Below, piece after piece: positions 30,835-51,573 of a stretch of DNA of 64,000 nucleotides; position 1 is the first letter of the stretch, and every line of letters starts with the position of its first letter. The notes under the pieces are model-generated. The model was not told the DNA's origin, did no database searches, and worked only from the letters and a program-made list of their open reading frames with translations. This DNA comes from Alphaproteobacteria bacterium (GTDB lineage Bacteria > Pseudomonadota > Alphaproteobacteria > JAAXGF01). Position numbers and translations under genes: made by a program. The stretch spans positions 1,984,001-2,048,000 of the forward strand of contig CAUVXB020000002.1 of NCBI GenBank assembly GCA_963555825.3. Reading direction: 5' to 3'.

Positions 30835-30996
30835 GGGCGGGCATTCCTCCGGGTGGAAATCGCGCCCAAAGCTAGCACATCGCGCGCATCGCGCGCATCG
30901 CGCGTAGACGCGCGCCCGATCGGCGCACGTCACGGCGGTGTCTCGGTTTGAAATTCTGTCGAAACAAAGCCCGGAACACCGGTTTATCAGCGGATC

Positions 30997-31072
30997 ATGC
31001 CCGGTTTTCGCTCGTAGGCGGACTCAGCGTGCCTGCGCTGCCGAGGGCGGCTTGTGGCCCGAAGCAGACATT
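30997..31072 (-). repeat. Bipartite palindromic island-boundary site, copy 1
   Basis: Minus strand AATGTCTGCTTCGGGCCACAAGCCGCCC-N20-AGTCCGCCTACGAGCGAAAACCGGGCAT. Confidence 0.75.
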
Positions 31073-31124
31073 GGTGAAGCCCGACTTCGTACCTGAGATT
31101 ATGCGCCGGACAGACCCGATGTCT

Positions 31125-31922
31125 CTACGTTGGCTTGTTAGCGCGCAGCTGGACAAGGCAGATTTCCCCCCTATCTGCCATCACTTCTATCTGTCGCCAA
31201 TTCGAGAGCCATCTCTCAGCCACCGCCTCGTCGAACGCCTCGATGAGCCGATCTCTGACGGTGCCGGCTTCCATTCGCTCGACGTCCGCCCGCAGAATTT
31301 CAAGGAACCATTGTTGATGATCCCGCACGACGATATCGGTAAATCCGGCTTGCTTAAGCGCGCCTCTCGTTTCATCCGCCGTCGCCCAGTTGAAGGTAAG
31401 ACCGCCACCCTCCAGAAATGTCACCATCTCTGCTGAGAACGGACCGTCGTCTCCGCGCAACCAATCGTTGGCTGCAAGCGTCCCTCCCGGCCGGAGTACG
31501 CGGAAAATGTCGGCAAAGAGCGTCGGCTTATTCGGGATTTGGAGAAAGACCCCCATGCTGAACACCACATCAAAGCTCGCGCCCGCAAAGGGAAATGGGC
31601 CTGGTTCGACGATTTCGTACGTGATGCGATCCGAGACGCCTCGCTTCGTTGCCAATTGGCGGGATCGCTCGGCCTGTTCGGCCTGAACATCAATAGAGAC
31701 GATTTTCCCGGCGCCGTGGTTTGCCGCAAGTGCAACCGAGGGGCCTCCGAGTCCGGAACCGATATCGAGAATGGTTCGTCCAGACAGGTCTATCCCTTCG
31801 ACCACGGATGCGACCTCTCCGTCACCGCCTGGGGACATCCAGCCTTCACCCCACACAATCGCATGGCAGATGAGATGCTCCTCGGTGTATTCACCGCTGG
31901 TGTCCGCCATCTTCTCATCCAT
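31125..31922 (-). CDS. Class I SAM-dependent N-methyltransferase (phosphoethanolamine/sarcosine-MT-like)
   Basis: WGEGWMSPGG, ILDIGSGLGG, FDVVFS, RVLRPGG. Confidence 0.85.
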   Translation of the reverse strand: MDEKMADTSGEYTEEHLICHAIVWGEGWMSPGGDGEVASVVEGIDLSGRTILDIGSGLGGPSVALAANHGAGKIVSIDVQAEQAERSRQLATKRGVSDRITYEIVEPGPFPFAGASFDVVFSMGVFLQIPNKPTLFADIFRVLRPGGTLAANDWLRGDDGPFSAEMVTFLEGGGLTFNWATADETRGALKQAGFTDIVVRDHQQWFLEILRADVERMEAGTVRDRLIEAFDEAVAERWLSNWRQIEVMADRGEICLVQLRANKPT

Positions 31923-31959
31923 TCCGCTTCGCAAGGCCTGAACACACATTCGTACTCTT

Positions 31960-32163
31960 ATCCCGGATGATCCCATCACCATGATCCGGGGCGATACACT
32001 GCCCGGCTTCGAGGGCGCGTTGGTGCCCGCGCCGCCGGGCGAGAGCGGTTGGGGCATCATTTACAACAGCGCGATTAGCTCGCCGGGCCGAATTAATTTT
32101 ACGCTCGGGCATGAGTTTGGTCATTACTTGCTGCACCGCATCGCCTACCCGAAGGGGTTTCAC
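31960..32163 (+). pseudogene. Internal fragment of an ImmA/IrrE-family metallopeptidase
   Basis: PDDPITMIRGDTLPGFEGAL..WGIIYN..GRINFTLGHEFGHYLLHR (HExxH). No plausible N- or C-terminus. Confidence 0.7.
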
Positions 32164-32217
32164 CGCCTAAGACCCTCTCGTCACCTCGTAACGGCGCCTT
32201 CGCACCGTTCGTGCGAC

Positions 32218-32610
32218 CTACTCCTCAAAGCGACCCGTGGCGTCACGATCGCGGTCGTATCGTCTCGTGAGCGGAAACGGCGGCAACCAGGACTCGCGAC
32301 GGACGATCCAGCTTTCGTAGGTTGGCATCAGTTGGTCAGGGGCATCCAGGGATACTAAGTTCACTTCGATTTCGTCTGCGCTGCGTGCGAAAATGGACGA
32401 GCCGCAGCGGGGACAGAACAACCGCCCGACGTAGTCGCGTGTTTCGCCATCGATCGTCACCGCATCCTGAGGGAACACCGCGGAAGCGTGAAAAAGGGCC
32501 CCATGATGCTTGCGGCAGTCGAGACAGTGACAAAGGCCGACCCGGTATGGGAGTCCCGACGCCACAATTCGGACGTTGCCGCACAGGCAACCGCCGGTGA
32601 ATCGGTCCAT
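32218..32610 (-). CDS. GFA/CENP-V family zinc protein
   Basis: GGCLCGNVR, CHCLDCRK, FCPRCGS. Confidence 0.92.
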   Translation of the reverse strand: MDRFTGGCLCGNVRIVASGLPYRVGLCHCLDCRKHHGALFHASAVFPQDAVTIDGETRDYVGRLFCPRCGSSIFARSADEIEVNLVSLDAPDQLMPTYESWIVRRESWLPPFPLTRRYDRDRDATGRFEE

Positions 32611-32948
32611 GCTGCGTCTCCTCTAAAATCAAGCGGTCGGAATGGTTACAACGAACAGCACTGTCATTGCAATTGCCCGCTGCGGGCGACTTGCGACCCA
32701 GACTGTGTAAAAACGCCGGCAAATACCACTAACAGGAGAGTGTCAAGTCAATTCTTCTATAGAGCCCTCATGATAAGATGTTGATTTGGTCGAACCTACA
32801 AATTCGAGAATTCAGAGAAAATCGTGCCAATAGCGCTCGGGGGCGGTTTTTACACATGGCGTAACTCGGGGATCGGGCACTGCTCTCCTTAATGTAGCAA
32901 CGACCGGCATGGGCCGGGCGAGCACACTGAAAGAGCAGGAGAGCAGCT

Positions 32949-33978
32949 ATGGAACTGTATGTTGGAATGGATGTATCGCTCAAGGAGACCTCGATCTGCG
33001 TGGTCGATGACAACGGCGAGATCGTGTCCGAGGGCGTGGTGATCTCGGAGCCGGCGGCAATCGCGGCGTATATCAGGACAACGGCGCCGCACGCAAAGCG
33101 CATCGGTCTGGAGACCGGTCCGACGACGACCTGGCTGTGGCATGAGCTCAGGGCGCTCGGCTTGCCGGTGATCTGCATCGATGCGCGTCATGCCAAGGCG
33201 GCGCTGTCGATGCAGATCAACAAGAGCGACCGGAACGATGCCGCCGGGATCGCGCGGGTCATGCAGTGCGGTTGGTACAAGGAGGTCCAAGTCGAGCGTG
33301 GCGTGCCACGAGATACGGGCCGTCCTGAACAGCCGGGCCCAGTTGGTCAAGATCAAGCGTGATCTCGAGAACCAGATCCGTGGCTTGCTCAAGAACCTCG
33401 GCCTCGTCATCGGCAAGGCGGGCGGCAATGTCTTCCGTCGCCGGGTCGAAGAGCTGCTTGGCGGGCAGGGTCTTTTGTCGGAGGCCGTTCGGCCCCTTCT
33501 GGAAGTCCGCGAGAAGGTCGGCCGAGAGATCGCCGCGCTCTATCGCAAGCTGCTGGGCCTGGCGCGGAACGACGAGGACAGCAGACGTTCCATGACGGTT
33601 CCAGGCATCGGGCCGATCACCGCCTTGGCCTTCCACTCGGCGATCGACGAGCCGAGCCGCTTCCGACGTTCCCGGAGTGTCGGCGCGTACATCGGGCTGA
33701 CGCCGCGCCGCCATGCTTCCGGCGAGGTCGATTGGACGGGGCGGATCTCCAAATGCGGCGATCGAATGCTCAGGACCTACCTCTTCGAGGCGGCCGGCGT
33801 GCTGCTCACCCGGGTGCCGCGATGGTGCGCGCTCAAGGCCTGGGGTCACAGGTTGTGGAAACGCATCGGCTTCAAGAAGGCCAAGATCGCCGTGGCACGG
33901 AAGCTGGCGGTCATCCTCCATCGCATGTGGCGTGATGGAACGGACTTCATCTGGTCAACCAAAGAGGCGGCCGCATAG
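32949..33978 (+). pseudogene. IS110 DEDD recombinase, frameshifted near 33293
   Basis: YVGMDVS, GLETG, KSDRNDA in ORF1; VPGIGPITA, GLTPRRHASGE, ISKCGD, AVARKLA in ORF2. Confidence 0.9.
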
Positions 33979-34200
33979 GGAAACAACGTCCAAGCATTCC
34001 GCGAGAGCGGAACCGATGTCCCTGTCGGGACGGCGGCGTCGGCGAGATCGATCCAGGCTTTGCGATGCCTCACCGAGGCAAGCGCGCTTCACACATTGAT
34101 CCGCCAACGTCCTCCAACGCCATCATGCGGAGGGCCGAGCCCCTACCGCGGAGAGAACAGTGAACCCGGCAGGTACGTCACGGAGAGCTTGACAACCAAC
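33979..34200 (+). ncRNA. Predicted bridge/seek RNA of the IS110 element
   Basis: Two internal-loop hairpins carrying TCCAGGCT and TTCACACA (target match) and ACGCCAT and AGAGAACA (donor match). Boundaries approximate. Confidence 0.75.
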
Positions 34201-34329
34201 CCCCGAGTTAGAGAACAGCCTGGACCCTCAGCAGACATTCATCGCTTTGAGTAAGGGGCACGATTCAGTGCCGATTGACATATAGTCTTCATGAATTTGA
34301 AGGTTATCTGGGAAATGTCGGCTTGATGT

Positions 34330-35643
34330 ATGACCTTAGGCAGCGGTGATTTTCCAACGGATCGACATGGCTGGGCGGAACTCCTGCCGGAACGGCAAGC
34401 GAGCCCGCCTTTAAGTGGAGCTCACAGGGTGTCGTGGGCGGTGATCGGGGCCGGGGTGACCGGTCTGGCCAGCGCCTGCCGTCTGGCCGAGCTCCACCCC
34501 GATCATGAGATCATGCTGCTGGATGCGCGTTTGGTTGGCCAGGGGGCCTCGGGGCGCAATTCCGGTTTTGCCGTCGCCGTCAGTCATTTCGATGGCGGCC
34601 TCGAGGCCGACGAGATGGCGAACTATCGTCGGGTCAATCGTATTAACCAAGCCGGTCTGGATCTGTTGCGAGTGCAAGTCGCCACGTCCGCGATTGATTG
34701 CCAATGGCAGGAAGATGGTTTTCACCATACCGCCGCTGATCGGCCGGCAATTCGCGAATGCCGCAATTTCCTGCGCTATCTTGAGGCCATGGAGATCGCC
34801 CATACGCCGCTTGATGCGGAGGCATTGAACGCGCGTCTGGGCACCACCCTTTACCAATCCGGCGTCCACGTCCACAAGGGGGCGCTCCTGCAACCGGCGG
34901 CCTTGGTGCGCGGGCTAGCGGACAATTTGCCCTCCAATGTCAGACTTCATGAACGAAGCCCGGTGCTCAGGATCGAGAATGGCACACCGCTGATTCTCCA
35001 CCTGCCAAATGGCGAGGTGCGGGCCGATAAACTTATTTTGGCGACCAACTACGAGGCGGCGAAACTTGGCTATCTGTGCCGCTATCTGATCGGCACCACC
35101 TTGTCGGGCAGTTTCACACGGACCTTAACTGATGATGAGCTTGCCAGCCTCGGCAGCCGGAAGGAATGGGGGGTTCTCTCGCTACACGGCGGCGGCGCGA
35201 CCGTGCGGCTGACGGCGGACCGGCGAATATGCCTGCGCAACGCGGCGGAGTATAATGGTGCCGCATTGCTGTCCGATAGGCAATTGGCCCATCGACAATC
35301 CATCCATCGGGCCGGGTTCGAGAAGCGCTTTCCGAAACTGGCCCATGTAGCGTTCGACTATGCCTGGTCCGGTGTCGAAGGGATCAGCCGCAACGGCGCC
35401 AATTTTTTCGGTCGCCAACGGGACAATATTTATCTCGCGGGCGGCTATAACGGTTCCGGCGTCAGCCGGGGGACGGCCTTCGGCACGGCGCTCGTAGACT
35501 ATGCCAGTGGCGGTCATTCACCGCTGATTGACGATTGTCTGGCCTCAGCACCTGGCGCCTGGATTCCGCCCAGGCCTTTCCTCGACATCGGCGCCCTTCT
35601 GACCGTCCGATCGCGTTTCCGGGGCGTTGGTTTGGATCGATAA
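34330..35643 (+). CDS. FAD-dependent oxidoreductase (DAO/PuuB-like)
   Basis: VIGAGVTG, GASGRNSGF, LQPAALVRGLA, GYNGSGV. Confidence 0.9.
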   Translation: MTLGSGDFPTDRHGWAELLPERQASPPLSGAHRVSWAVIGAGVTGLASACRLAELHPDHEIMLLDARLVGQGASGRNSGFAVAVSHFDGGLEADEMANYRRVNRINQAGLDLLRVQVATSAIDCQWQEDGFHHTAADRPAIRECRNFLRYLEAMEIAHTPLDAEALNARLGTTLYQSGVHVHKGALLQPAALVRGLADNLPSNVRLHERSPVLRIENGTPLILHLPNGEVRADKLILATNYEAAKLGYLCRYLIGTTLSGSFTRTLTDDELASLGSRKEWGVLSLHGGGATVRLTADRRICLRNAAEYNGAALLSDRQLAHRQSIHRAGFEKRFPKLAHVAFDYAWSGVEGISRNGANFFGRQRDNIYLAGGYNGSGVSRGTAFGTALVDYASGGHSPLIDDCLASAPGAWIPPRPFLDIGALLTVRSRFRGVGLDR

Positions 35644-35784
35644 GGTCGCGAAGATGTACAGAGTCTGGAACGCGTCCTGGACCCTGAAGGAGCTCGGTTG
35701 GATGTAGTGCGTCGTGTCGGCGCGCGACTTCCCAAACAAACGGGGGGTTAAGGCAGGACGTTGCCCAGCGCCCCCATTTCTGCT

Positions 35785-35849
35785 GATGGCTACACTCGGA
35801 CCCAACGGCCACACCAGAACGATGACCGCTTTCGGACGATACGCCGACA
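35785..35849 (+). repeat. Degenerate copy of the bipartite boundary site
   Basis: GACCGCTTTCGGACGATACGCCGACA resembles the second half-site GTCCGCTTTCGAGCGGTAGGCGGGCA. First half is poorly conserved. Confidence 0.45.
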
Positions 35850-35976
35850 GACAGGCCCACTTCGCGCTTTCAACACGTCATAGTGCCAACCGGGACACGG
35901 CCCATCGTTCGCCGCCTTTGACGCGCACCGGAACGCTCCAGTAGAGTGAGCGCCCTTTATTCGAGCCGGGCGGGAC

Positions 35977-38286
<2,310 letters not shown>

Positions 38287-38496
38287 GCAGGCGCCGCTAA
38301 GAGGCCAGACCGGCATGTATGACAGCCGGCGCCCGGCGCTGGCGCGCCCGGGTTGTCCTCTCGGACTGTTTATGGCATGATTACCGATGAAACAATGCAT
38401 TGAAATAGAATTATAAAACATCCATCGCCCTGGTCGGTCAGAGGCGTCAGTCGGGAAGCGCGGGCGAAAGCGACGCGCGCGGCGGCGCGACGGCGT

Positions 38497-38856
38497 ATGA
38501 CAATCGGCGCATGGGTGACCGGCGCCTTGACCAGCGCGGCGAACGCCGAACTGGGTGTCGGCGGGTCCGCGGCGCCGCACGGCGACAATGCCACGGCCGC
38601 GGGTCAACTGGTTGATCACGAGCGGCGCAACGCGCTGAAGCTCGATGAGCTGGCGGCGGCGATCGCGGCGCTCTCCGAACAGCTCGACCGGGCCGCCGGC
38701 CCGACCGCCCGCCTGGTCAGCGTCGACCAATTGGCGCGCGCGATCAAGCCGCTCGAACACGCGCTCGAGCGTGCCGAAAAGACCACCGGCGGCGACACCG
38801 GCGCGGGTCGCGTGACGGGACGTATCTCGAACCTGCCGGGCGCCCGCGGCGGCTGA
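38497..38856 (+). CDS. Hypothetical protein (119 aa)
   Basis: Fills the intergenic gap, genome-typical GC3 codon use, AT-rich upstream region. No recognised motif. Confidence 0.5.
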   Translation: MTIGAWVTGALTSAANAELGVGGSAAPHGDNATAAGQLVDHERRNALKLDELAAAIAALSEQLDRAAGPTARLVSVDQLARAIKPLEHALERAEKTTGGDTGAGRVTGRISNLPGARGG

Positions 38857-38878
38857 CGCCCGGCCTTCGGCTGGTTCA

Positions 38879-38972
38879 TTGTCCGGTCATCTTTACGGGT
38901 AAAGATGACCTGCGCTCAATCGCCGCGCATGCCACTCTTATGGGATCAAAGCTGGCCGAACGGTCGGCGGCC
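38879..38972. repeat. ~95-bp structured dispersed repeat, copy 1
   Basis: Close match to 55486-55582. Hairpin GGTCATCTTTAC-gg-GTAAAGATGACC. Confidence 0.85.
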
Positions 38973-38977
38973 GGCGG

Positions 38978-40096
38978 TCAGGCGGCGATCGCCTCGCTGG
39001 CCGGCTGATACGGGTGGCCGAGGTCGCGCGCGACCGCCTCGTAGGTCACGTTGCCGTGGTGCACGTTGAGGCCCGCCAAGAGATGCGCGTCGTCGGCCAG
39101 CGCCTGCTTGTAGCCCTTGTCGGCGAGCGCAACGGTGAACGGCAGCGTCGCGTTGTTGAGCGCGAACGTCGAGGTCCGCGCGCAAGCGCCCGGCATGTTG
39201 GCGACGCAGTAGTGCACCACCGAATCGACGATGTAGGTCGGCTCGGCGTGGGTCGTCGCCTTGCTGGTCTCGGCGCAGCCGCCCTGGTCGATGGCGACGT
39301 CGACGAGCACCGAGCCGCGCTGCATCTTCGTGACCATCTCGGCGGTGACCAGCTTGGGCGCCTCGGCGCCCGGCACGAGCACCGCGCCTACCACGAGGTC
39401 GGCGCCCAAGACATGCTGCTCGACCGACTCGACGGTCGAATAGATCGTGTTGAGCGTCGGGCCGAACTGCATGTCGAGCTCCTGCAGGCGACGCACCGAG
39501 CGGTCGATCACCGTGACCTGCGCCTCGAGCCCCATCGCCATGCGCGCCGCGTTGGTGCCAACCACGCCGCCGCCGATGATCACGACGCGCGCCGCGGCGA
39601 CGCCCGCCACGCCGCCCAGCAGCATGCCGCGGCCGCCCTGTTCCATCTCGAGGCAGTGGGCCCCGGCCTGGATCGACATGCGCCCGGCGACCTCGCTCAT
39701 CGGCGCCAGCAGCGGCAGGCCGCCGCGGTCGTCGGTGACCGTCTCGTAGGCGATCGCGACGCAGCCCGCGCCCATCAGCAGCTCGGTTTGCCCGGGGTCG
39801 GGTGCGAGGTGCAAATAGGTGAACAGCAGCTGGCCCTCGCGCAGCATGCGGCACTCGTTCGGCTGCGGCTCCTTGACCTTGACCACCATGTCGGCGACAG
39901 CGAAGATTTCCTCGGCCGTGTCGACGATGCGCGCGCCGGACGTGACGTAGTGCTCGTCGTCGAGGCCGATGGCGCGACCGGCGTTGGCCTGAACGATGAC
40001 CTCGTGGCCGTGATGAACCAGTTCACGCACGCTCGACGTGATCAGTCCGACCCGGTACTCGTGCGTCTTGATCTCCTTAGGGACTCCTATCAGCAT
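38978..40096 (-). CDS. ald: Alanine dehydrogenase
   Basis: [46 protein letters not shown]. Confidence 0.97.
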
Positions 40097-40889
40097 GTCT
40101 CTCCCCACATCCCGCTGCGTTGAATTCGAAGGCCGTCATGGCCAAGGTCGCGTAAAGGAAGCTTGCGTGCAAGCGCCTTCCGCGCGCATCTGGTCCGGCG
40201 GCGCCCATGGCGACCAGAAGCGGCACATAGTGATCGGCGCTCGGGTGGTTACGCGCGGCGTCGGGCCCTTGCGCGAGGTAGTCGACGAGCGCGTCCTCGT
40301 CGCCCGTCTCGACGCGCGCGGTGAGCCAGTCGTCGAACGCCTGGGCCCAGGGTTGGGGCGGCTCGTCACGCCCGCCGCGTTCGCTCAGATTGTGCGTCGC
40401 GTTGCCGCTCGCCAGCACCAGCACGCCTTCGTCGCGCAAGGCGGCGATGGCATGGCCGAGAGCCAGGTGATGCGCCGCGTCGCCGTGGCGCTGGATCGAG
40501 AGCTGGGTGACCGGGATGTCGGCGTCCGGATAGATCATCATCATGGGCGCCCAGGCGCCGTGGTCGAGCCCGCGCGCGTCGTCGAGCGCACAGCCGATGC
40601 CGGCATCGTCGAGCAGCGCGGCGGTGCGGCGCGCCAGCTCGGGCGCACCCGGCGCAGCATAGCGCAGCCGATAGAGTGCATCGGGAAAGCCGTAGAAGTC
40701 GTATATCGTCTCAGGCGCGGCGACGGCGCTGACGCTGGGGCTTGCCGTCTCCCAATGCGCCGAGACGCAGAGCACGGCCTCGGGCCGGGCGAGCGTGTCG
40801 CCGAGGTCGCGCAGGAACCGCGCGCTCGGCACGTCCTCGATAATCAGCGGCGGCGGGCCGTGCGAGACGAACAGCGTGGGCAGGGGCAT
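40077..40889 (-). CDS. Extradiol dioxygenase LigB/DODA (YgiD-like)
   Basis: PTLFVSHG, SAHWET, IYDFYGFP, GLDHGAW, SGNATHNL, HPSADHYVPL. Confidence 0.92.
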   Translation of the reverse strand: MPLPTLFVSHGPPPLIIEDVPSARFLRDLGDTLARPEAVLCVSAHWETASPSVSAVAAPETIYDFYGFPDALYRLRYAAPGAPELARRTAALLDDAGIGCALDDARGLDHGAWAPMMMIYPDADIPVTQLSIQRHGDAAHHLALGHAIAALRDEGVLVLASGNATHNLSERGGRDEPPQPWAQAFDDWLTARVETGDEDALVDYLAQGPDAARNHPSADHYVPLLVAMGAAGPDARGRRLHASFLYATLAMTAFEFNAAGCGERHADRSP

Positions 40890-41191
40890 GATCGGCGCGC
40901 CATCTTGTCGATTGCTTCGGTTCTCAATGCATAGACCACGTCGTCGAGGGCACCGCAACACGATCCGCCGACGGCCGCTTCCGGGCGCTCGGCGGGCGCC
41001 AATCATGCGGCGCTTCGACACCGGCTAACCGCCAAGCGGAGACCCTTCACGAGGCGACGCTATCCAAGCGCAGAAATGGCGATCACGGTCGGCCAGTGAC
41101 ATCCCGGCTAGGCTGCTGAATGTAAGCCGAGACTCTTCCTCTTCGGTTGGTTTAACGTCCCGATTACTTCCATTCGGGGATCGGGGCCGAC

Positions 41192-42310: not shown

Positions 42311-42337
42311 GACCGGTGCGTCACGAAAGGAACGAAG

Positions 42338-43243
42338 ATGGGAATTCTCGACGATAAGGTCGCACTGGTCACCGGCGCCAGCCGGGGAATTGGGCGGGGC
42401 GTCGCGATCGGGCTGGCGCGCGAGGGCGCGCGGCTCGCAATCACGGCGCGAACCATGACGCCGGCCGATGCTCCCGGCCTCGATGGCGGCGACCGGCGGG
42501 TGCCGGGCACGCTCGTCGAGACACGAGAGGCCCTAGACGAGATGGGCGCCGGGGTGCTTGCTTCGCCCGCCGACTTGGCCGATGTCGAAAGCGTGCGCGA
42601 CCTGGTGAGCCAGACGATCGAGACGTTCGGCCGTATCGACATCGTCGTAAACTGCGCCATGGGGTTCGCCGACGACTTCGAGGGCACGTCGTTCTGGCAG
42701 AGCCCGGTAACCGATTGGGATATGCAGAACACCGTCGGCGTTCGCTCCCACTACATGACCGGCTATTTCGCCGCGCCCCACATGGTCCGTCAAGGTAGCG
42801 GCCTGATCGTCAATATATCGTCGGCGGGGGCGATCGGGGAGTACTACAACGTCGGTTTCCGCGTCGCCCATGCCGCCAACAGCCGACTCGCCAAGGCGAT
42901 GGCCTTCGACTTGAAGAGCCACGGTGTCGCCGCGCTGGCGCTTTGGCCGCGCTGGGTGTTGACCGAAAGGGTGAAGCTCGCCGCCGCGAACAGCCATCCC
43001 GGCTTCCACGTCGAGGAGGCCGAGTTGGCCGACGCCGACACGCCCGAACTGATCGGTGCGGCGATCGCCCGGCTGTCCGTCGACCCCGAGCTGATGGCGA
43101 AGAGCGGACACGTTCAGCTCATCGCGGAACTGGCCGACGAATACGGTTTGGTCGAGGCCGACGGGCGGCAGCCCCGGATCGACGACTTTACGCGCGAATT
43201 GCGCGAACGGCTCGACCGTATCGAGGCGGCGTTGGACTGGTAG
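42338..43243 (+). CDS. Short-chain dehydrogenase/reductase (DHRS1-like)
   Basis: VTGASRGIGRG, GRIDIVVN, LIVNISS. Confidence 0.9.
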   Translation: MGILDDKVALVTGASRGIGRGVAIGLAREGARLAITARTMTPADAPGLDGGDRRVPGTLVETREALDEMGAGVLASPADLADVESVRDLVSQTIETFGRIDIVVNCAMGFADDFEGTSFWQSPVTDWDMQNTVGVRSHYMTGYFAAPHMVRQGSGLIVNISSAGAIGEYYNVGFRVAHAANSRLAKAMAFDLKSHGVAALALWPRWVLTERVKLAAANSHPGFHVEEAELADADTPELIGAAIARLSVDPELMAKSGHVQLIAELADEYGLVEADGRQPRIDDFTRELRERLDRIEAALDW

Positions 43244-43293
43244 CCCGAGCGCTGGTCATGGCGCTCGTGCAATTCTAAGGTTTTTCGCCGATA

Positions 43294-43369
43294 TCGCCTG
43301 CTTCCGAGCAGATTGCGGACCTCGCGCCGCTGGGCGCCGGATGTCGGCTCATAGCCACAGGCAGACATT
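43294..43369 (-). repeat. Bipartite palindromic island-boundary site, copy 3
   Basis: Minus strand AATGTCTGCCTGTGGCTATGAGCCGACA-N20-GGTCCGCAATCTGCTCGGAAGCAGGCGA. Confidence 0.75.
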
Positions 43370-43379
43370 GAGACCTCGT

Positions 43380-43420
43380 CGTTAGACTCGCTTCTCGAGC
43401 ATCTATAGACTGCAACCGAC
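43380..43420 (+). promoter_or_regulatory. Promoter-like TAGACT-N17-TAGACT, copy 1
   Basis: CGTTAGACTCGCT...ATAGACTGC-A-CGAC, repeated at 43926-43966. Confidence 0.6.
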
Positions 43421-43440
43421 GCCTACTGAGGAATGCAGCG

Positions 43441-43908
43441 ATGGATGAAGACCACATCGTCGAAGGCGGCTGCATGTTCGGTGCTGTGCGGTATCGGGCA
43501 AGCGGAGAACCGTTTTGGGTCGGTCATTGCCACTGTCCGAGTTGCCGACGCCATACCGGGGCGCCCGTGGTCACTTTCGCCGCATTCAAGGCGCATCAAG
43601 TCGCGTTCACCAAGGGCGAACGCCGGATCTATAACTCGTCGCCCGGCGTCAAGCGCGGCTTCTGCGGCGACTGTGGCACGCCGCTGACGTGGGAAGGGCA
43701 GAGCGAAGTCCCGGAACGCGGCATGATCGTCGAGTTCTACATCTCCTTGTTCGACGACCCCGACGCGTTCATGCCGACCAACCACCTCTGGTACAAGTAC
43801 CGGATCGCTTGGTTCGACGTCGCCGACGACCTGCCGCGCTATAACGAGTTCGATTCGACCAGCGACATTGACCGCCACGGACCGGCGACCGACGGCTTAC
43901 CCGGCTAA
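43441..43908 (+). CDS. GFA/CENP-V family zinc protein
   Basis: EGGCMFGAVRY, CHCPSCRR, RGFCGDCGTPL. Confidence 0.9.
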   Translation: MDEDHIVEGGCMFGAVRYRASGEPFWVGHCHCPSCRRHTGAPVVTFAAFKAHQVAFTKGERRIYNSSPGVKRGFCGDCGTPLTWEGQSEVPERGMIVEFYISLFDDPDAFMPTNHLWYKYRIAWFDVADDLPRYNEFDSTSDIDRHGPATDGLPG

Positions 43909-43925
43909 GGGCGGTGCAACGACCC

Positions 43926-43966
43926 CGTTAGACTCGCTCCGTCCGCTTCCATAGACTGCCATCGAC
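43926..43966 (+). promoter_or_regulatory. Promoter-like TAGACT-N17-TAGACT, copy 2
   Basis: Upstream of the original GTG (43994) of the cyclase gene. Confidence 0.6.
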
Positions 43967-44015
43967 AACGAATTCGGATCGGGGGGCACTCCCGTGGCAG
44001 GGGGGACTGTCGAAC

Positions 44016-45669
44016 GGGTGTGGGTCTGGTATGGAAAATCTAAGTCATTGATTTAGTGCGTTTTTTGTGTCGAGACGAACGGCCGAAATCGGCTATTCGT
44101 GACAATGGGCCGCTCCAAGGCAGGATTTTGTTACGACGGCAGGGTCGAGCAGGGGAAGGTGGGAACGCTCCGCACCGCCAGAAGCGGTACGATGCCGTGT
44201 CTCGAAACCCAACATCGGGAGCATTCCCATGGCAGTATCCCCGCCTCCGGCGCCTTCGTCCATCGATCTTTCCGGCCTGCCTCCTCGGGTCGTCGAGGCG
44301 GCCGCCCGGGTGCTCGCACTGTGTCGCGAGGAGCTTCGTTCCGAGCCGCGCCCCGAGGCGCCCGAGGAGGTCGAGTTGCGGGTGCGTGAGGCCACGAACG
44401 AGTTCGCTCGCGATGTCATGGGCGCCGTCATCGAGAACCGGGACGATGGCGCTTCCCGGATCGAGCGGGACGGGCAGAGCTGGTTCCGGGTCGCGGTGAC
44501 GCCGAAGACGATCATGACCTCGCTCGGTCCGGTGACCTACCGGCGAGCGCGTTACCGCAGCGGCGCGAGCGGGGCATCGCCGGTGCCGGTCGACGAGAGC
44601 CTGGGCCTCGTCGACGATTACCTGACGCGGCCGGCGGCCGAGCTCGGTCTGCTGATGATGGGTCACTGCACGGCCCGGGAAGCGGCGGCGTTCTTTGCGA
44701 AGACCGGCGCCATGACGCCGTCGGTGAGCACCCTGCAGCGCCTGACCCTGAGCATGCACGAATGCTGGGAGAGCCTCGGCCCGGAGACGCTGGGCAGCAT
44801 CCGTGAGGCCGAGGGCATACCGCAGGACGCGACCACCGCCTCGGTCTCCCTCGACGGCGTCATGGTGCCGCTGAGACCCGGCGAGGACGGTCGCGCCAAG
44901 GCCTCCTGGCGCGAGGCTGCCTGCGGCACGGTCTCCTTCCACGACGCCGAGGGCAAGCGCCTGAAGACCCTCTATCTCGGCCGCATGCCGGAGAGCGGCA
45001 AGCTCACGCTGAAGGCGCAGCTTGCAAGCGAAGTCGCACACATCAGGCGAGCACGCCCCGAGATCGGGATCGTCGCTATCGCCGATGGCGCCGCCGACAA
45101 CTGGACCTTCCTGGAGACCCTGTCGCCCGAAACCGAGGTGATCGACTTCTGGCATGCTTGCGAACATCTGCAAACCGCGTCCGACCATGCCGTGGCGCCC
45201 GGCTGGTTCGAGAAGTACCGCGAGATCCTCCGTCACGATCCCCGTGGCGTCGCCAAGGTGATCCGGGCGCTGCGCCACCTTCGCGATGCCGCCGCTGCGC
45301 CGGACCGGGCCGAGACCGAGCGGGAACTCGCCTTCTTCCGCAAGCATCGCCATCGCATGCGCTACCACGCCCTGAAGGAAGAGGGCATCGCCATCGGCTC
45401 AGGCGTGGTCGAAGCTGCCAACAAGACCCTGGTGACACAGCGCATGAAGCGCTCCGGCATGCGCTGGCGGATCGTCGGCGGACAGGCTGTTCTGACCTTC
45501 CGCGCCCTGATCAAATCCGGCCGCTTCGAGCGGGCATGGAAGGCCCTGATCAGCGCAACCGACACACCGGCCAACGACAACATCAGTCCACGTGCAGCAG
45601 CCATGGCAATCGCTGCCTGAACTCAACGAACCAAGCCGCAGACATCACTGCCATGCGAGACTCGCACCC
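44016..45669 (+). mobile_element. Mutator-like IS (ISKra4/ISLre2-type) with 8-bp target duplication
   Basis: TIRs GGGTGTGGGTCTGGTATGG / CCATGCGAGACTCGCACCC (15/19). TGTCGAAC at 44008-44015 and 45670-45677. Confidence 0.9.
44229..45620 (+). CDS. Mutator-like DDE transposase
   Basis: SLDGVMV, IADGAADNW, DFWHACEHL, IGSGVVEAANK..RMKRSGMRW. Confidence 0.9.
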   Translation: MAVSPPPAPSSIDLSGLPPRVVEAAARVLALCREELRSEPRPEAPEEVELRVREATNEFARDVMGAVIENRDDGASRIERDGQSWFRVAVTPKTIMTSLGPVTYRRARYRSGASGASPVPVDESLGLVDDYLTRPAAELGLLMMGHCTAREAAAFFAKTGAMTPSVSTLQRLTLSMHECWESLGPETLGSIREAEGIPQDATTASVSLDGVMVPLRPGEDGRAKASWREAACGTVSFHDAEGKRLKTLYLGRMPESGKLTLKAQLASEVAHIRRARPEIGIVAIADGAADNWTFLETLSPETEVIDFWHACEHLQTASDHAVAPGWFEKYREILRHDPRGVAKVIRALRHLRDAAAAPDRAETERELAFFRKHRHRMRYHALKEEGIAIGSGVVEAANKTLVTQRMKRSGMRWRIVGGQAVLTFRALIKSGRFERAWKALISATDTPANDNISPRAAAMAIAA

Positions 45670-47434
45670 TGTCGAACGGCGACTCGCGGCTATCCTGTGC
45701 GCCGACGTGGTCGGTTACAGCCGGCTCATGGAAGGCGACGAGGAGGCGACCATCCGTGCCCTAAGCGCGTGCCGCCGTATTGTCGATGATATGGTCGAGC
45801 GCCATCGCGGCCGGGTCTTCGGAAGCGCCGGCGACAGCGTCGTCGCCGAGTTTGCGAGCGCTGTCGAGGCTGTGCGTTGCGCCATCGAAATTCAGCGCCT
45901 CCAAGGGGCGCAAGACGCCGACGTTTCCGAGGACCGGCGCATGCGCTTGCGCATTGGCATCAACCTCGGCGATATCGTCGTCGAAGACAGCAATCTGCTC
46001 GGCGACGGCGTCAATGTCGCCGCCCGGCTGCAAGCGCTTGCCGAGCCTGGCGGCCTGTGCATCTCGGCCAATATTCACGAACATGTGGGAGGCAAGCTTG
46101 ACCTAGTCTTTGATGATCTCGGCGGCCGGACAGTTAAGAACATCGCAAGGCCCATACGCGCCTACCGCGTTCGTTTCGAAACTCCCATCGGCCACTCCGA
46201 TGGTTCGCAGCGTGGACCACTGGGATTGCCTGACAAGCCTTCGGTCGCCGTCCTTCCGTTCACAAACATGTCTGGAGAGCCCGAACAGGGGTACTTTTCG
46301 GACGGTATCACCGAGGACATCATCACCGGTCTCAGCCGCTTCCGTGAATTGTTTGTCATCGCACGTAACTCTGCCTTCACCTACAAGGGCCGAGCAGTAA
46401 AGGTGCAGGACGTCGGCCGCGAACTAGGCGTCGGCTACATCGTCGAGGGCAGCGTGCGCAAGGCGGGCAACCGCGTGCGCGTCACCGCTCAGCTCATCGA
46501 GGCGGCGACCGGAAGTCACGTGTGGGCCGAACGCTATGATCGGGAACTAGAGGACATCTTCGCCGTCCAAGATGATATCACCGAGACGGTGGTCGCCACG
46601 CTTGCGGGGCGGCTTGGCGAACTGGGCGTCGATCGTGTGAAACGCAAACCAACCGAGAGCCTGACGGCCTTTGATTACGTCTTGCACGCGAGACAACTGA
46701 TCTATCGGTACGGGCAAGAAAGCATCGCCGAAGCCACGGGTCTGCTCGAAAGGGCCGTCGCCCTCGACGCCGATTACGCGGCCGCCCACGCCTGGTTGGC
46801 GGAAGCATATTGGGTCGAATGGTGGGCCGGCTGGACCGCCGATGACGTCGGTAGCTACGAGACCAGCGCGCGTCACGCCACGCAAGCTGTGGCGCTCGAC
46901 GACACTGACGGCCGAGCTCATATCCAAGTGGGCCAGATTCATTTGTACCGACGCCGGTATGACGATATGCGCCTCAGTTTCGACAAGGCTCAATCACTAA
47001 ATCCCAATGATCCCGATGCGATGATGAGCCGTGCTTTTGGCAGCGTGTATGTAGGTGAGCCCGAACGCGCCCTAGAACAGATAGACGAAGCAATCCGGAT
47101 CGATCCCTTGGGTCATTATGGGTATATCCGAGGCCTTGCCTCCTATGGGATGCGAAACTACGAAGACGCCTTAGCTGCGTTCAAGACCGTGCGGGGAGAA
47201 GCGCAGGGCGTCCAGGCCTGGTTGGCTGCCTGCTACGGGCAAATCGGCAACCGCGATGATGCCAAGGGCGCATCTGCCGAGTTCGTTGCTGTCACAACGA
47301 GGCTAATGGGCCAGGTAGGTGCACGAGTGCCCACAATCTGGACCAGCTACTTCACGGAGCGCCATCCTTACGAGCGCGCTGATGACCAAGATCACATGCT
47401 TGAAGGGCTGCGCAAAGCCGGGCTACGTGCATAG
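45653..47434 (+). CDS. Adenylate/guanylate cyclase-TolB-like-TPR protein, 5' end separated by the IS (original start GTG 43994)
   Basis: RRLAAILCADVVGYSRLM, GDGVNVAARL, PSVAVLPFTNMSG, TPR-like tail. Confidence 0.9.
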   Translation: MRDSHPVERRLAAILCADVVGYSRLMEGDEEATIRALSACRRIVDDMVERHRGRVFGSAGDSVVAEFASAVEAVRCAIEIQRLQGAQDADVSEDRRMRLRIGINLGDIVVEDSNLLGDGVNVAARLQALAEPGGLCISANIHEHVGGKLDLVFDDLGGRTVKNIARPIRAYRVRFETPIGHSDGSQRGPLGLPDKPSVAVLPFTNMSGEPEQGYFSDGITEDIITGLSRFRELFVIARNSAFTYKGRAVKVQDVGRELGVGYIVEGSVRKAGNRVRVTAQLIEAATGSHVWAERYDRELEDIFAVQDDITETVVATLAGRLGELGVDRVKRKPTESLTAFDYVLHARQLIYRYGQESIAEATGLLERAVALDADYAAAHAWLAEAYWVEWWAGWTADDVGSYETSARHATQAVALDDTDGRAHIQVGQIHLYRRRYDDMRLSFDKAQSLNPNDPDAMMSRAFGSVYVGEPERALEQIDEAIRIDPLGHYGYIRGLASYGMRNYEDALAAFKTVRGEAQGVQAWLAACYGQIGNRDDAKGASAEFVAVTTRLMGQVGARVPTIWTSYFTERHPYERADDQDHMLEGLRKAGLRA

Positions 47435-47481
47435 ACCGCTGCCCCTATTGTTAATGTCTACTGCGGGTCCAGACTGTGTAA

Positions 47482-48656
47482 TACCAGTGAGCCTATGAAA
47501 TCACCTTCATGATCCATGGATAGGCGCAGAGGGTTCGCATACGATCCGGTTCTGCGATGAGGTCGATCCATGCTTGGCAACAGGCGTCGATGATGGCCTC
47601 GGTGTCGTCGAGGACGCGGAGCGATAGGAAGCGTTCGCGTAGGTAGAGCCAAACCCGCTCGACGGGGTTGAGTTCGGGACTGTAAGGCGGCAACAGCGCC
47701 AAGGTGACGTTGTCGGGGACGGTGAGGGCGCGCTCGTCGTGCCAACCGGCGCCGTCGCACATCATGACGGCGTGCGCATCCTGGTCCAGGGTATCGGCGA
47801 AGTGTGCGAGAAACAGGTCCATGACCTTGGCGTTGACGCTCGGCATCACCAGGGTGACGTCGTCGCCGGTGTCCGGGCGCACGGCGGAGAAGATGTAGGC
47901 CCACTGGTAGCCGATTTGACGCGTCCCGGGGGCACGCTCGCCCCTGCGCCACCACCGGTGACACACCCGGCCCTTGTTGCCGACGCGCGCTTCATCCTGA
48001 AACCACAGCTGTAGGCGCTTGTCGGGATGCGCCGCGGCGGTCGCCTTCAGGATGTCGCGAAGCCCCCTTTTTTGAAGCGCTCCTGCGCTTCGGCGTCCCT
48101 TCGCGGGTGGCTCGGGCGCGCCTTCTGGCGGGAAAATCCCATCCGCCGTAGAACCCGGGTCATGCTCGAGGGGTGGTAGGTCTTGGCGAAGCGCTCCTCC
48201 AGCCAGCGGCACAGATCGGCCCGGGTCCAGGCGCAAACCCCGTCGCGCTCAGGCTCCGGCCCGGCGATGATGACCGCCGCCAGCGCCGCTTCCTCGTCTG
48301 CCGTCAGCCGCCGCGGCGAGTAGCCCTTTGGACGGTCGTGAAGCCCCTCCAATCCCTTTGCATTGTAACGAACAACCGCGTCGCGAAGCGTTTGGCGATC
48401 CATCCCCGCAAGCCGCGCGGCATCAGCCCGGGGCATCTCCTCCAAAGCATTCGCGATCCCATAGGCCCGCGCCGCCGCTCGACCGTACGATTCCACGCGA
48501 GCCCAGCGCCGAAGCTCCAAAGGCGTCAAATCATCCCGTATCTTGAGTGCTGATCCCATGACATCCCCCACATCTGGTGGGAGACCATAGAATCACAATC
48601 CGCCATCATCCGCCATCAATGAATATCCCGAGAGTCAATTCAGGCGCTCACTGGTA
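47482..48656 (-). mobile_element. IS630-family element, copy 1 (1175 bp; orfA 48047-48571 and orfB ending at 47493, joined at A6G5)
   Basis: Ends TACCAGTGAGC/GCTCACTGGTA. HTH orfA; orfB with FQDEARVG, DGAGWH, LPPYSPELNPVE. Confidence 0.95.
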
Positions 48657-48659
48657 TTA

Positions 48660-49834
48660 TACCAGTGAGCCTATGAAATCACCTTCATGATCCATGGATA
48701 GGCGCAGAGGGTTCGCATACGATCCGGTTCTGCGATGAGGTCGATCCATGCTTGGCAACAGGCGTCGATGATGGCCTCGGTGTCGTCGAGGACGCGGAGC
48801 GATAGGAAGCGTTCGCGTAGGTAGAGCCAAACCCGCTCGACGGGGTTGAGTTCGGGACTGTAAGGCGGCAACAGCGCCAAGGTGACGTTGTCGGGGACGG
48901 TGAGGGCGCGCTCGTCGTGCCAACCGGCGCCGTCGCACATCATGACGGCGTGCGCATCCTGGTCCAGGGTATCGGCGAAGTGTGCGAGAAACAGGTCCAT
49001 GACCTTGGCGTTGACGCTCGGCATCACCAGGGTGACGTCGTCGCCGGTGTCCGGGCGCACGGCGGAGAAGATGTAGGCCCACTGGTAGCCGATTTGACGC
49101 GTCCCGGGGGCACGCTCGCCCCTGCGCCACCACCGGTGACACACCCGGCCCTTGTTGCCGACGCGCGCTTCATCCTGAAACCACAGCTGTAGGCGCTTGT
49201 CGGGATGCGCCGCGGCGGTCGCCTTCAGGATGTCGCGAAGCCCCCTTTTTTGAAGCGCTCCTGCGCTTCGGCGTCCCTTCGCGGGTGGCTCGGGCGCGCC
49301 TTCTGGCGGGAAAATCCCATCCGCCGTAGAACCCGGGTCATGCTCGAGGGGTGGTAGGTCTTGGCGAAGCGCTCCTCCAGCCAGCGGCACAGATCGGCCC
49401 GGGTCCAGGCGCAAACCCCGTCGCGCTCAGGCTCCGGCCCGGCGATGATGACCGCCGCCAGCGCCGCTTCCTCGTCTGCCGTCAGCCGCCGCGGCGAGTA
49501 GCCCTTTGGACGGTCGTGAAGCCCCTCCAATCCCTTTGCATTGTAACGAACAACCGCGTCGCGAAGCGTTTGGCGATCCATCCCCGCAAGCCGCGCGGCA
49601 TCAGCCCGGGGCATCTCCTCCAAAGCATTCGCGATCCCATAGGCCCGCGCCGCCGCTCGACCGTACGATTCCACGCGAGCCCAGCGCCGAAGCTCCAAAG
49701 GCGTCAAATCATCCCGTATCTTGAGTGCTGATCCCATGACATCCCCCACATCTGGTGGGAGACCATAGAATCACAATCCGCCATCATCCGCCATCAATGA
49801 ATATCCCGAGAGTCAATTCAGGCGCTCACTGGTA
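48660..49834 (-). mobile_element. IS630-family element, copy 2 (tandem, apparently identical)
   Basis: Identical ORF translations offset by 1178 bp. Confidence 0.95.
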
Positions 49835-50006
49835 TAAGAACGTTTGCTGCGTGATCTGTACGGCGCGTCTTTGGCTTCGATGATCCGTCGCGGCGGGTAT
49901 TCCGGGATTAAGGATTTTCGCCACTCGTGCGGACCTGTCGGCCGGCTGGCGCCGGTGTGAGCTGCGATTTGGCCGGATATGGGCGCAATTTGCGGCGCAG
50001 AGAGGC

Positions 50007-51449
50007 CTATGCGGTCCTCATCGCCGCGATCAGCGGGTCGATGCCCGTGATGTTCATGACGCGCTTGAGATTGTAGGCCAGCACGTGCAGGGCCATCTCG
50101 GTCCTCACCCGTTTCAGCGTCTTCGTCTGGAAATGCGTCGCGCCCATCCAGGACTTGATGGTGCCGAAGGGATGCTCGGCCGTCTCGCGCCGCCGACGCA
50201 TCGCCTCCGGGTGCTCGTCGAGCCGCCTCTCGACGGCCTCGAGAACATGCTCGTGCTGCCAGCGGGTGATGCGGCGCTGCTTGGCCGTGGTGCAGCGATG
50301 CTTGATGGCGCATCCCTGACAGGCGTTGGTCCAGTAGCGCCGCATGCTCAGCCCCCTCTCCTGGCTGGTGAAGCGGTAGACCAAACGCTCGCCGGCCGGG
50401 CAGCGATAGACATCGTCGGCGGCCAGATAGACGAAGTCCTGTTTGCCGAAGCGGCCCTTGGCCTTGGCTCCAGAGGTCAGCGGCTTAGGCAATGTGACGG
50501 TGATGCCGGCCTCATCGCAGGCCAGAATCTCCTTGCCGTTGTAGTAGCCGCGATCGGCAACGACATCCAACTCGTCGGTCTCCAGAGCCGCCTTGGTCCG
50601 CTTCGCCATGGCTGAGAGCTGGGCGCGGTCGGTGCCCTGATTGGTCACCTCGTGGGCGACGATCAGGTGGTGCTTGGTGTCGACGGCGGCCTGAACGTTG
50701 TAGCCGACCACGCCGGAACCCCGGCCGCTCGTCGCCATCGAGCGGGCATCGGGATCGCTCAGAGAGATCTGCTGGTCCGGGCTCGCACGCCGCTCGACTT
50801 CAAGCGCCTTCAGGCGCCGCATCTCCTCCTTGAGGATCGCGATCTTGTCGGCCAGACGAGTCGTCTTGGTCGTGCGCGCCAGCGACGGCTCTTGCCGGTC
50901 GGCGCTGTCCAACTGGTCCAGATAGCGCGCAACGCTCTCCTCGATCTGCGCCACCCGCCGCGCCATCTTGGCCCGCGTGAAGTTCCTGTCCCGGCTGTTG
51001 ACCGCCTTGAACTTCGAGCCATCGATCGCCACGCTCGCCTCGGCGAACAGCCCGAGTTGCCGGCACAGCGCGACGAACCGGGCGCAGACCTTGCGGATCG
51101 CACGGCCGTTGTCCTTGCGGAAGTCGGCGATCGTCTTGTGATCCGGCGCCAGCCGGCCGACCAGCCACATCACTTCCACATTGCGCCCGGCCTCCCTCTC
51201 GAGCCGACGGCTCGACTGAACCCGGTTGAGATAGCCGTAGATGTAGAGCTTCAACAAATCGCAAGGATGATAGGCCGGCCTGCCGGTCGCCAGCGGCTCG
51301 ACCCGGTCGAACCCGAGGCCGCCAAGATCGAGCTCATCGACGAAGACGTCGATCGCCCGAACCGGGTTGTCGTCGCCGATCCAGTCTTCCAGGCGCTCCG
51401 GAAACAACGTGCCCTGGCTGCGATCGACACCCTCGACAAAACGCTTCAT
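50007..51449 (-). CDS. IS1182-family transposase
   Basis: GRPAYHP..LLKLYIYGY..SSRRLE, PDHKTIADFR, IDGSK, GYNVQ, ADRGY, EHPFGTIK. Confidence 0.95.
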   Translation of the reverse strand: MKRFVEGVDRSQGTLFPERLEDWIGDDNPVRAIDVFVDELDLGGLGFDRVEPLATGRPAYHPCDLLKLYIYGYLNRVQSSRRLEREAGRNVEVMWLVGRLAPDHKTIADFRKDNGRAIRKVCARFVALCRQLGLFAEASVAIDGSKFKAVNSRDRNFTRAKMARRVAQIEESVARYLDQLDSADRQEPSLARTTKTTRLADKIAILKEEMRRLKALEVERRASPDQQISLSDPDARSMATSGRGSGVVGYNVQAAVDTKHHLIVAHEVTNQGTDRAQLSAMAKRTKAALETDELDVVADRGYYNGKEILACDEAGITVTLPKPLTSGAKAKGRFGKQDFVYLAADDVYRCPAGERLVYRFTSQERGLSMRRYWTNACQGCAIKHRCTTAKQRRITRWQHEHVLEAVERRLDEHPEAMRRRRETAEHPFGTIKSWMGATHFQTKTLKRVRTEMALHVLAYNLKRVMNITGIDPLIAAMRTA

Positions 51450-51509
51450 CAGACCCTCCCGCCAAAGCACGAGAGAATCATAACACCATCGACGTTTTTA
51501 CACAGTCTG

Positions 51510-51573
51510 GGTCAGCTGCAGACCTACGGCGAAGTTGGGTTGGGCGTCCGCTTTCGAGCGGTAGGCGGGCATT
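51510..51573 (+). repeat. Right part of the bipartite boundary site split by IS1182 (left part 47453-47469)
   Basis: Rejoined: AATGTCTACTGCGGGTCAGCTGCAGACC-N20-CGTCCGCTTTCGAGCGGTAGGCGGGCATT. Confidence 0.75.

Follow-up and report, generated by a model that had tools for sequence, protein, structure and literature searches.

Several described systems offer points of comparison for short palindromic repeats that recur outside genes. The repetitive extragenic palindromes (REPs) of enterobacteria and the bacterial interspersed mosaic elements (BIMEs) are short imperfect palindromes that are extragenic and multi-copy, form alternating clusters with conserved linkers, are enriched at the 3' ends of genes, and serve as hotspots for insertion sequences (ISs); binding by proteins of the nucleoid, gyrase, or integration host factor (IHF) type has been proposed for the BIMEs of E. 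coli. In REPIN/RAYT systems (RAYT, REP-associated tyrosine transposase) a doublet of repeat units can form a single long hairpin, and the attC sites of integrons and pdif sites are short, partly palindromic sites with a 28-bp unit at the borders of accessory genes. Passages of Tobes and Pareja (2006, PMC1525189) describe ISRm22 of Sinorhizobium meliloti, all ten copies of which (10/10) lie in REPs, at the axis of the palindrome and with a 6-bp repeat, and give REP targeting as established for the IS3, IS110, IS4, IS256, and IS5 families. For Alphaproteobacteria, passages of Di Nocera et al. (2013, PMC3733652) describe CGTC-tagged REPs with stems of 8–9 bp beginning with AT, loops of 4–5 nt and a CCA tail, for which they report no dedicated transposase and RAYT genes that are present and not flanked by the repeats. 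Here, we analyze a two-part repeat, the A-20-B composite, in a window of 64,000 nucleotides (C2:1984001-2048000) from an alphaproteobacterial genome (G000; 6.04 Mb in two contigs, C1 and C2, 65% G+C). The A-20-B composites are very probably dispersed REP/BIME-like extragenic palindromic repeats that act as an IS hotspot, and not dedicated borders of gene cassettes.

At four sites of the window (sites 1, 2, 3, and 5; table 1) a 28-bp unit A is joined by a spacer of exactly 20 bp to a 25-bp unit B with the sequence GTCCGCTTYCGAGCGGTAAGCRGAC. The arms of unit A are ATGTCYGC and GCAGACAT, and its center carries GGTC or GGCT. A weight matrix for unit B scores 17.3–23.2 at exactly these four complete sites, and the next best match in the window scores 9.9. 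The motif AATGTCTRC occurs four times in the window with 0.42 occurrences expected, and none of 100 shuffled sequences reached four, so that chance is excluded. Reading the sites confirmed the bipartite architecture and the positions that an initial annotation of this DNA had assigned, and, with a maximal unit B score of 9.9 outside the four complete sites, its statement that the backbone holds no copy is true for the window. Its sizes for unit A and the spacer also hold; unit B, given there as about 28 bp, is 25 nt by the present definition. Site 5 had been called degenerate; it is a true family member with the full 28+20+25 layout and resembles the copy at C1:381949. Site 4 had been credited with a near-identical half A. 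Here, the duplication of GACC (32695-98 and 34223-26) and a single repeat-like arm (34227-34238) stand; the flank left of the inserted block, a miniature inverted-repeat transposable element (MITE) with IS1182-type ends that carries an IS110, is not repeat-like.

The composites are multi-copy and extragenic, and they occur on both contigs of the genome as well as in other Alphaproteobacteria. An iterated nhmmer search that was seeded with three intact copies and run to convergence identified 81 non-overlapping composites in the genome (E < 0.01), and all but two of them (79/81) are wholly outside the crude gene calls, which are based on third-position G+C and cover 68% of the genome. A perfect 9-bp palindromic expression for unit B matched only twice, the units being imperfect, and nhmmer with the 25-nt unit B alone was insensitive (50–65 matches); the weight matrix was used instead and found 127 copies of unit B at a score of 14 or more (4 in coding sequence) and 147 at 12 or more (12 in coding sequence). 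A corresponding matrix for unit A drifted onto an unrelated multi-copy sequence, with 121 of 276 matches in coding sequence at score 14, and was discarded, and only A units standing 20 nt from a B unit were counted. Merging copies within 1.5 kb gives 93 loci, 29 on C1 and 64 on C2, many of which are gene-free A-20-B-36-B'-20-A' arrays in which the units alternate in orientation and which are at times doubled in tandem (e.g., C2:1374380-1374590 and C1:499500-499840). Of 13 intact composites selected by a strict definition, 12 have a spacer of precisely 20 nt, and in the 13 as a set 5–9 of the 10 outer A positions are complementary. Among the 92 loci that could be classified by their flanking single-copy genes, 33 lie between convergent, 47 between tandem, and 12 between divergent genes, compared with 390, 962, and 403 control gaps, respectively (chi-square 11.9, p=0.0026). 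No rule emerges for the A-to-B orientation relative to transcription (16 vs 30, p=0.054).

An IS1182-family transposase targets unit A preferentially and makes a 4-bp staggered cut at the exact center of the unit, mostly at GACC. The element is about 1684 bp long and has the ends CAGNCTGTGT and copies that are 95–100% identical. Its assignment to the IS1182 family agrees with the Pfam domains of the transposase (DUF772, DDE_Tnp_1, DDE_Tnp_1_6), with the terminal inverted repeats, and with the 4-bp target duplication, and relatives of the transposase at 64–72% protein identity are annotated "IS1182 family transposase". End 1 of the element is found in 27 copies in the genome, and both ends were found for 21 of these. 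When one copy of the 4 bp is removed, the empty sites of the 21 two-ended copies rebuild a 28-bp unit that is split 12+4+12; the 4 bp are the same on both sides in 18 of the 21 copies, and in 15 they are GACC on both sides. Unit B lies only at the end-1 side of 19 of the 27 copies, only at the other end of 2, at both ends of 1, and at neither end of 5 (19 vs 2, binomial p=2e-4). The orientation of the IS would be fixed relative to unit B if the transposase reads the asymmetric GACC center, which is itself fixed relative to B. A total of 98 A arms lie 20 nt from a B unit; 15 belong to an intact A, 26 abut IS1182 type a, 8 abut a second IS1182 type (type b), and 49 are otherwise interrupted or too degenerate to call. 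The second IS1182-type element in the arrays has a 452-aa transposase and the ends GAGGCTGTTGAAGAA. Relatives of the IS1182-family element on a Methylorubrum plasmid and on a Sphingobium plasmid have the GACC/GGTC duplication too. In site 3, the left tip of the element (47470-80) is parted from the remainder (49837-51509) by two tandem copies of an IS630-like element (47481-49836).

The arrays hold further mobile elements. Genes between neighboring B units include five different IS110 transposases, an IS3 (orfA/orfB, 4–5 copies), and an IS256-type transposase gene, and MITEs are also present. We distinguish the observed insertions from the following picture, in which the arrays would be sequence-specific landing sites, mainly for the IS1182-family element with its cut in the GACC at the center of unit A, and the pile-up of ISs would make them plastic, so that accessory DNA may collect there; for that reason both islands in the window would be bordered by composites. 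In place of a new integron-like system this gives the concrete picture of an orientation-specific landing site for an IS1182-family element combined with a general IS trap, and the arrays may help to explain where accessory DNA gathers in IS-rich alphaproteobacterial genomes. The 21 rebuilt empty sites and 15 intact targets also form a natural data set on the recognition of a 28-bp palindrome by a DDE transposase.

The distribution of the family beyond the source genome was surveyed with an exact degenerate pattern across an A arm, the spacer, and B that has 18 matches in the source genome. The pattern is present in at least 114 contig stretches of a species-representative collection, nearly all of them from metagenome-assembled genomes (MAGs) labelled Alphaproteobacteria and often with several contigs per MAG; among the matches listed, labels include Rhodospirillales, Thalassospiraceae, Kiloniellales, Hyphomicrobiales, Pseudolabrys, and others. 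The units in these stretches vary very little, their spacing is again 28+20+25, and often a further 20 nt lead to a third unit; in one MAG (L032), unit A contains the same IS1182 end. Of 401 evenly sampled genomes of the class, only four had the pattern, with 18 matches in the source genome, 10 in G362, 4 in G103, and 1 in G029; two genomes of the same family in this sample had no match, and the reversed control pattern had none in all 401 genomes.

How this family compares with the described systems differs from one to the next. With enterobacterial REPs and BIMEs it shares short imperfect palindromes within the 20–40 bp range, dispersed extragenic copies, alternating clusters, a bias to the 3' ends of genes, and use as an IS hotspot; however, its sequence is unrelated, it has neither the GTAG tag nor a RAYT, it combines two distinct units at a strict distance of 20 bp, and its arms show no compensatory change. 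The composite at C1:686702 folds as one long hairpin in which A is paired with B (z-score -2.48), as REPINs do, whereas none of the three Y1 genes of the genome is flanked by A-20-B units, and the features of RAYT-mobilized GTAG REPs and REPINs, that is, the tag and a repeat-flanked Y1 gene, were not found. As with attC and pdif, a partly palindromic 28-bp unit is located at accessory-gene borders, but no associated integrase was found here, copies lie in gene-free arrays genome-wide, and the cuts documented at A-20-B sites are transposase insertions. The closest parallel in IS behavior is ISRm22 as described in the passages cited above (PMC1525189), since almost every copy of either IS, each with a DDE_Tnp_1-type transposase, is inserted on the symmetry axis of a palindromic repeat; the IS110, IS3, and IS256 elements (and the IS5-type elements of that account) that use REPs are a further likeness to the arrays here. 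The direct repeat is 4 bp here versus 6 bp in ISRm22, the orientation bias is strong here, and among the 27 copies here 21 have unit B on a single side, 1 has it on both, and 5 have none within reach. The CGTC REPs, as far as the cited passages describe them (PMC3733652), are likewise alphaproteobacterial, with units that start with TGTC or CGTC, are mostly dimers, and have no dedicated transposase. In the A-20-B units, GTC pairs with GAC, the arms are GTCCGCTT, and the centers are 7–12 nt, features that differ from the text description of the CGTC REPs, of which there are four families. We found no description of the A-20-B family in the literature (searches with sequence strings gave, among the matches listed, primer-type matches only, and a search for IS1182 with REP gave nothing relevant). 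The composites thus appear to form a previously undescribed repeat family, judged against the text accounts of the REPs of S. meliloti and of the CGTC REPs. A sharply conserved yet patchy repeat without a known mobilizing enzyme raises the same question as the CGTC REPs do.

Several observations weigh against a REP/BIME-like nature of the composites. The usual structural hallmark of REPs, a stable hairpin with compensatory changes, was not seen: the copies in the window are poor hairpins that do not outfold shuffled sequence (single-stranded DNA folding z-scores +1.5, -1.15, and -1.45), and no arm pair covaries beyond shuffled controls, the Watson–Crick fraction being equal to the shuffled expectation, in 125 B units of the genome itself, 109 A units from MAGs, and 85 B units from MAGs. 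Most arm positions hardly vary, however, so that the missing covariation is weak evidence against a REP hairpin. Because the arms are conserved in sequence without compensatory change, proteins, including at a minimum the transposase, may recognize them in double-stranded form, rather than the arms being maintained as a hairpin. The units carry no GTAG tag, and no RAYT is linked to them. The surroundings of the loci are slightly lower in GC (median 64.1% vs 65.7%, p=8.5e-8) and the loci are unevenly spread, the 200-kb bin of the window being tied for the maximum with 10 loci; some link with accessory DNA is therefore real, and the family is dispersed with some leaning towards plastic regions. 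Furthermore, composites bracket both islands of the window with A facing inward, and a segment around the GFA gene is 96% identical to a sequence from another genus.

The two islands and the GFA segment require a closer description. In relatives of other genera and families (G002, G011, G009, G018, and others) mutS and maeB are divergent neighbors 290–420 bp apart; the 4.9-kb block that parts them here, with the methyltransferase and FAD oxidoreductase genes as its outermost genes, is therefore an insertion. One junction of this block is at site 1, which is upstream of mutS and downstream of the methyltransferase gene and is abutted at its unit B by Module L, a second repeated module; the other is within about 40 nt of site 5, at about which distance the retained maeB promoter region lies, with a promoter motif surviving at ~35908-35948. 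Site 4 lies between the genes of the block. Module L starts 5 nt from the longest-ORF (open reading frame) start of mutS, so that the native mutS upstream region has been displaced. The mutS–maeB spacers of four relatives contain no repeat, and no ancestral site can therefore be defined. Island 2, which is riddled with ISs, lies between sites 2 and 3, which are inverted relative to each other. Sites 1, 2, 4, and 5 lie in the same context, with 0–3 differences, in contigs of four sequencing runs from four studies. The GFA segment (449 bp, 32208-32656) matches G001:C99 (L143 2029-2477), although core genes of G001 and the source genome are 74–87% identical. It comprises the GFA gene with 46 nt upstream and 10 nt downstream and is the single such case; its homology stops sharply at both ends, with a degenerate B-like unit 27 nt away in G001, and the shared segment does not include the repeat units. 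On the sense strand its ends form an imperfect 12-nt inverted repeat (about 9/12 by eye, post hoc). In two runs (X11, X5) the depth of a variant of the GFA gene is higher by about five-fold, and the loose end of this variant at 32656 is similar to the flank in G001. This suggests that the segment was exchanged between organisms sharing a habitat.

A gene-cassette system, in which the composites would be sites of a trans-acting recombinase or nuclease that shuffles accessory modules in the manner of attC or pdif, could account for an insert between mutS and maeB that is bordered by sites 1 and 5 with site 4 between its genes, for an island between the inverted sites 2 and 3, for a GFA segment with sharp ends and a repeat unit near each copy, and for a unit A that has the 28-bp size and arm–center–arm layout of a recombinase core site. 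We consider this improbable. The 93 loci include gene-free arrays, only two islands were examined, and four borders with A facing inward arise by chance at about 1/8 to 1/16; the order B-A[genes]A-B, which the initial annotation described as inverted pairs enclosing modules, is a trivial outcome of arrays in which A is the outer unit, since any gene between two arrays shows it. The annotation was right that the window holds no match to PF00589 (tyrosine recombinases) or PF01797 (Y1), but the enzyme that it proposed to act in trans was not found: of 42 PF00589 matches in the genome only one, a broken gene at C1:766046, is beside an array, versus about 1.3 expected by chance, and the three PF01797 genes, which are flanked by other repeats or by none, have no match to the composite model within 1.5 kb. 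In addition, the homology of the GFA segment leaves out the repeat units, the bias to convergent gene ends is typical of REPs, and the composite is found in many other Alphaproteobacteria. What survives of the annotation's proposal is that the sites are fixed-base substrates of enzymes acting in trans, namely transposases, and that both island junctions in the window coincide with composites; a dedicated gene-capture system is not supported, and the family is not special to islands, given that a scan beyond the window finds the composite dispersed over both contigs. The suggested check for module junctions, made on contigs of four public runs, gave no well-supported joint at a site border and neither shows nor excludes excision; joints such as 34221->38902 and 30652->40593 were not counted, having a shorter side of 21–41 letters and touching multi-copy sequence. 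A related proposal, that a trans-acting enzyme co-transferred among Alphaproteobacteria of a shared habitat spreads the A-20-B repeats and inserts single-gene modules beside them, with the ISs exploiting a pre-existing recombination site, can cite the GFA segment (449 bp, 96% identity across genera, sharp ends beside repeat units) as its example, and is unlikely as well.

A more serious alternative, though still only a tentative one, is that the composites are small non-autonomous mobile elements of a MITE- or REPIN-like kind, copied by an enzyme encoded elsewhere, and that the targeting by ISs is secondary. Their patchiness (4 of 401 genomes of the class and neither of two genomes of the same family with the strict pattern), units that are near-identical across MAGs labelled as different orders, multi-unit blocks that recur with their spacers at several loci, and the single long hairpin at C1:686702 are all consistent with mobility, but the composites showed neither a target-site duplication nor an empty site, no enzyme emerged as a candidate, units flank no RAYT, and at the one locus compared in relatives (mutS–maeB) there is no repeat, so that the borders of an element cannot be defined. 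Patchiness argues in the opposite direction for a host function, with the repeats as sites of a DNA-binding protein (a nucleoid protein, gyrase, or an IHF-like protein) or as RNA elements at 3' ends. Such a function, which is doubtful, would fit arms conserved without covariation, a spacing fixed at 20 bp, and the enrichment between convergent genes; it fits less well with the location of site 1 upstream of mutS, which is a divergent promoter region in relatives, with the weak orientation relative to transcription, and with the lack of a known binding protein and of any Rfam family match (the window at gathering scores and five array loci at E≤1 both gave none). Lastly, the halves of unit A might be taken for the outer ends of the IS itself, as long terminal inverted repeats or solo ends, and not for a separate target, because the flanks of each IS copy look like inverted repeats and the IS ends share CAGAC with the A arms. 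This is very improbable and is contradicted by the data: the flanks vary between copies whose IS bodies are 95–100% alike, so that the flanks are target and not IS, the rebuilt sites match the 28-bp length of the 15 intact IS-free A units, and intact A units are present in MAGs without the IS. Dispersed REP/BIME-like repeats with unit A as an IS target thus remain our preferred reading.

Table 1. Composite sites, associated elements, and genes of the window (positions are those of the window; B score, unit B weight-matrix score)
Feature	Positions	Strand	Details
Site 1	30999-31071	-	A 31044-31071, spacer 31024-31043, B 30999-31023; B score 17.3
Site 2	43296-43368	-	A 43341-43368, spacer 43321-43340, B 43296-43320; B score 17.7; nhmmer E 2e-7
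Site 3, left part	47454-47469	+	first 16 nt of A including target GGTC 47466-69
Site 3, right part	51510-51570	+	GGTC (duplicated) 51510-13, arm 51514-25, spacer 51526-45, B 51546-70; A half 51510-51525; B score 23.2
Site 4	32695-34238	-	degenerate unit A parted by inserted block 32699-34222
Site 5	35776-35848	+	A 35776-35803, spacer 35804-35823, B 35824-35848; B score 17.9
IS1182-family element in site 3	47470-51509	-	parts the halves of unit A; transposase 50007-51470
Module L	30938-30998		second repeated module abutting unit B of site 1
mutS	28132-30933	-	Pfam
Methyltransferase gene	31125-32060	-	Pfam; between site 1 and GFA
GFA gene	32218-32610	-	Pfam; before site 4
FAD oxidoreductase gene	34330-35643		Pfam; between site 4 and site 5
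Malic enzyme gene maeB	35977-38286		Pfam; after site 5
Alanine dehydrogenase, LigB, GCV_T, SDR genes			Pfam; between maeB and site 2
Second GFA gene	43441-43908		Pfam; after site 2
IS, then cyclase/TPR gene			Pfam; between second GFA and site 3
Flavin reductase gene			Pfam; beyond site 3

Other repeats accompany the composites in this genome. Module L has the sequence CTCGGTTTGAAATT..CGAAACAA.GCCCGGAA.. and at least nine further copies in the genome, often beside a unit A variant with an arm ending in GCGGCTGT; five other genera of the family contain matches of 75–84%, at several places. A perfect hairpin with a 12-bp stem at 38884-38914 (GGTCATCTTTAC GGG GTAAAGATGACC) probably represents a second repeat family that is unrelated to the A-20-B composites; its word GGTCAYCTTTAC occurs 61 times in the genome, and in metagenome contigs the depth of the stretch around it rises to about 35-fold, loose ends being numerous at 38899 and 38972. 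Two of the Y1 (IS200/RAYT-like) genes, at C2:1867017 and C1:1325246, each lie between AT-rich repeats of their own, which occur in both direct and inverted orientation (GGGGTCAGACYCCTTTATT and AAGCAGTATAYATTTA) and are unrelated to the A-20-B family. Three adjacent tyrosine-recombinase genes form sets that are present in several identical copies (C2:601578-603959, 3600917-3603298, and 2326091-2329931) and probably represent separate mobile elements.

Of the 3878 crude ORFs, 1095 have one or more additional copies at ≥88% identity, and the genome is therefore extremely IS-rich. The IS630-like element, with the end TA|ATACCAGTGAGCC, has 34 ends in the genome and is inserted at an identical TA inside the IS1182 tip (CTGTGTA|A) at five places, namely window 47470-49836, where it forms two tandem copies of 1178 bp, and C2:1097111, 1514779, 1743668, and 2644292. 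An IS with a UPF0236-type transposase, present in 23 identical copies genome-wide, splits the cyclase/TPR region at 44007-45668. The form without this IS (joint 44006->45669, where 11 letters are shared) is found in contigs of three public runs (X1, X3, and X5). Runs of at least five studies, including sponge metagenomes, contain near-identical sequence (about 0.9 of the words sampled).

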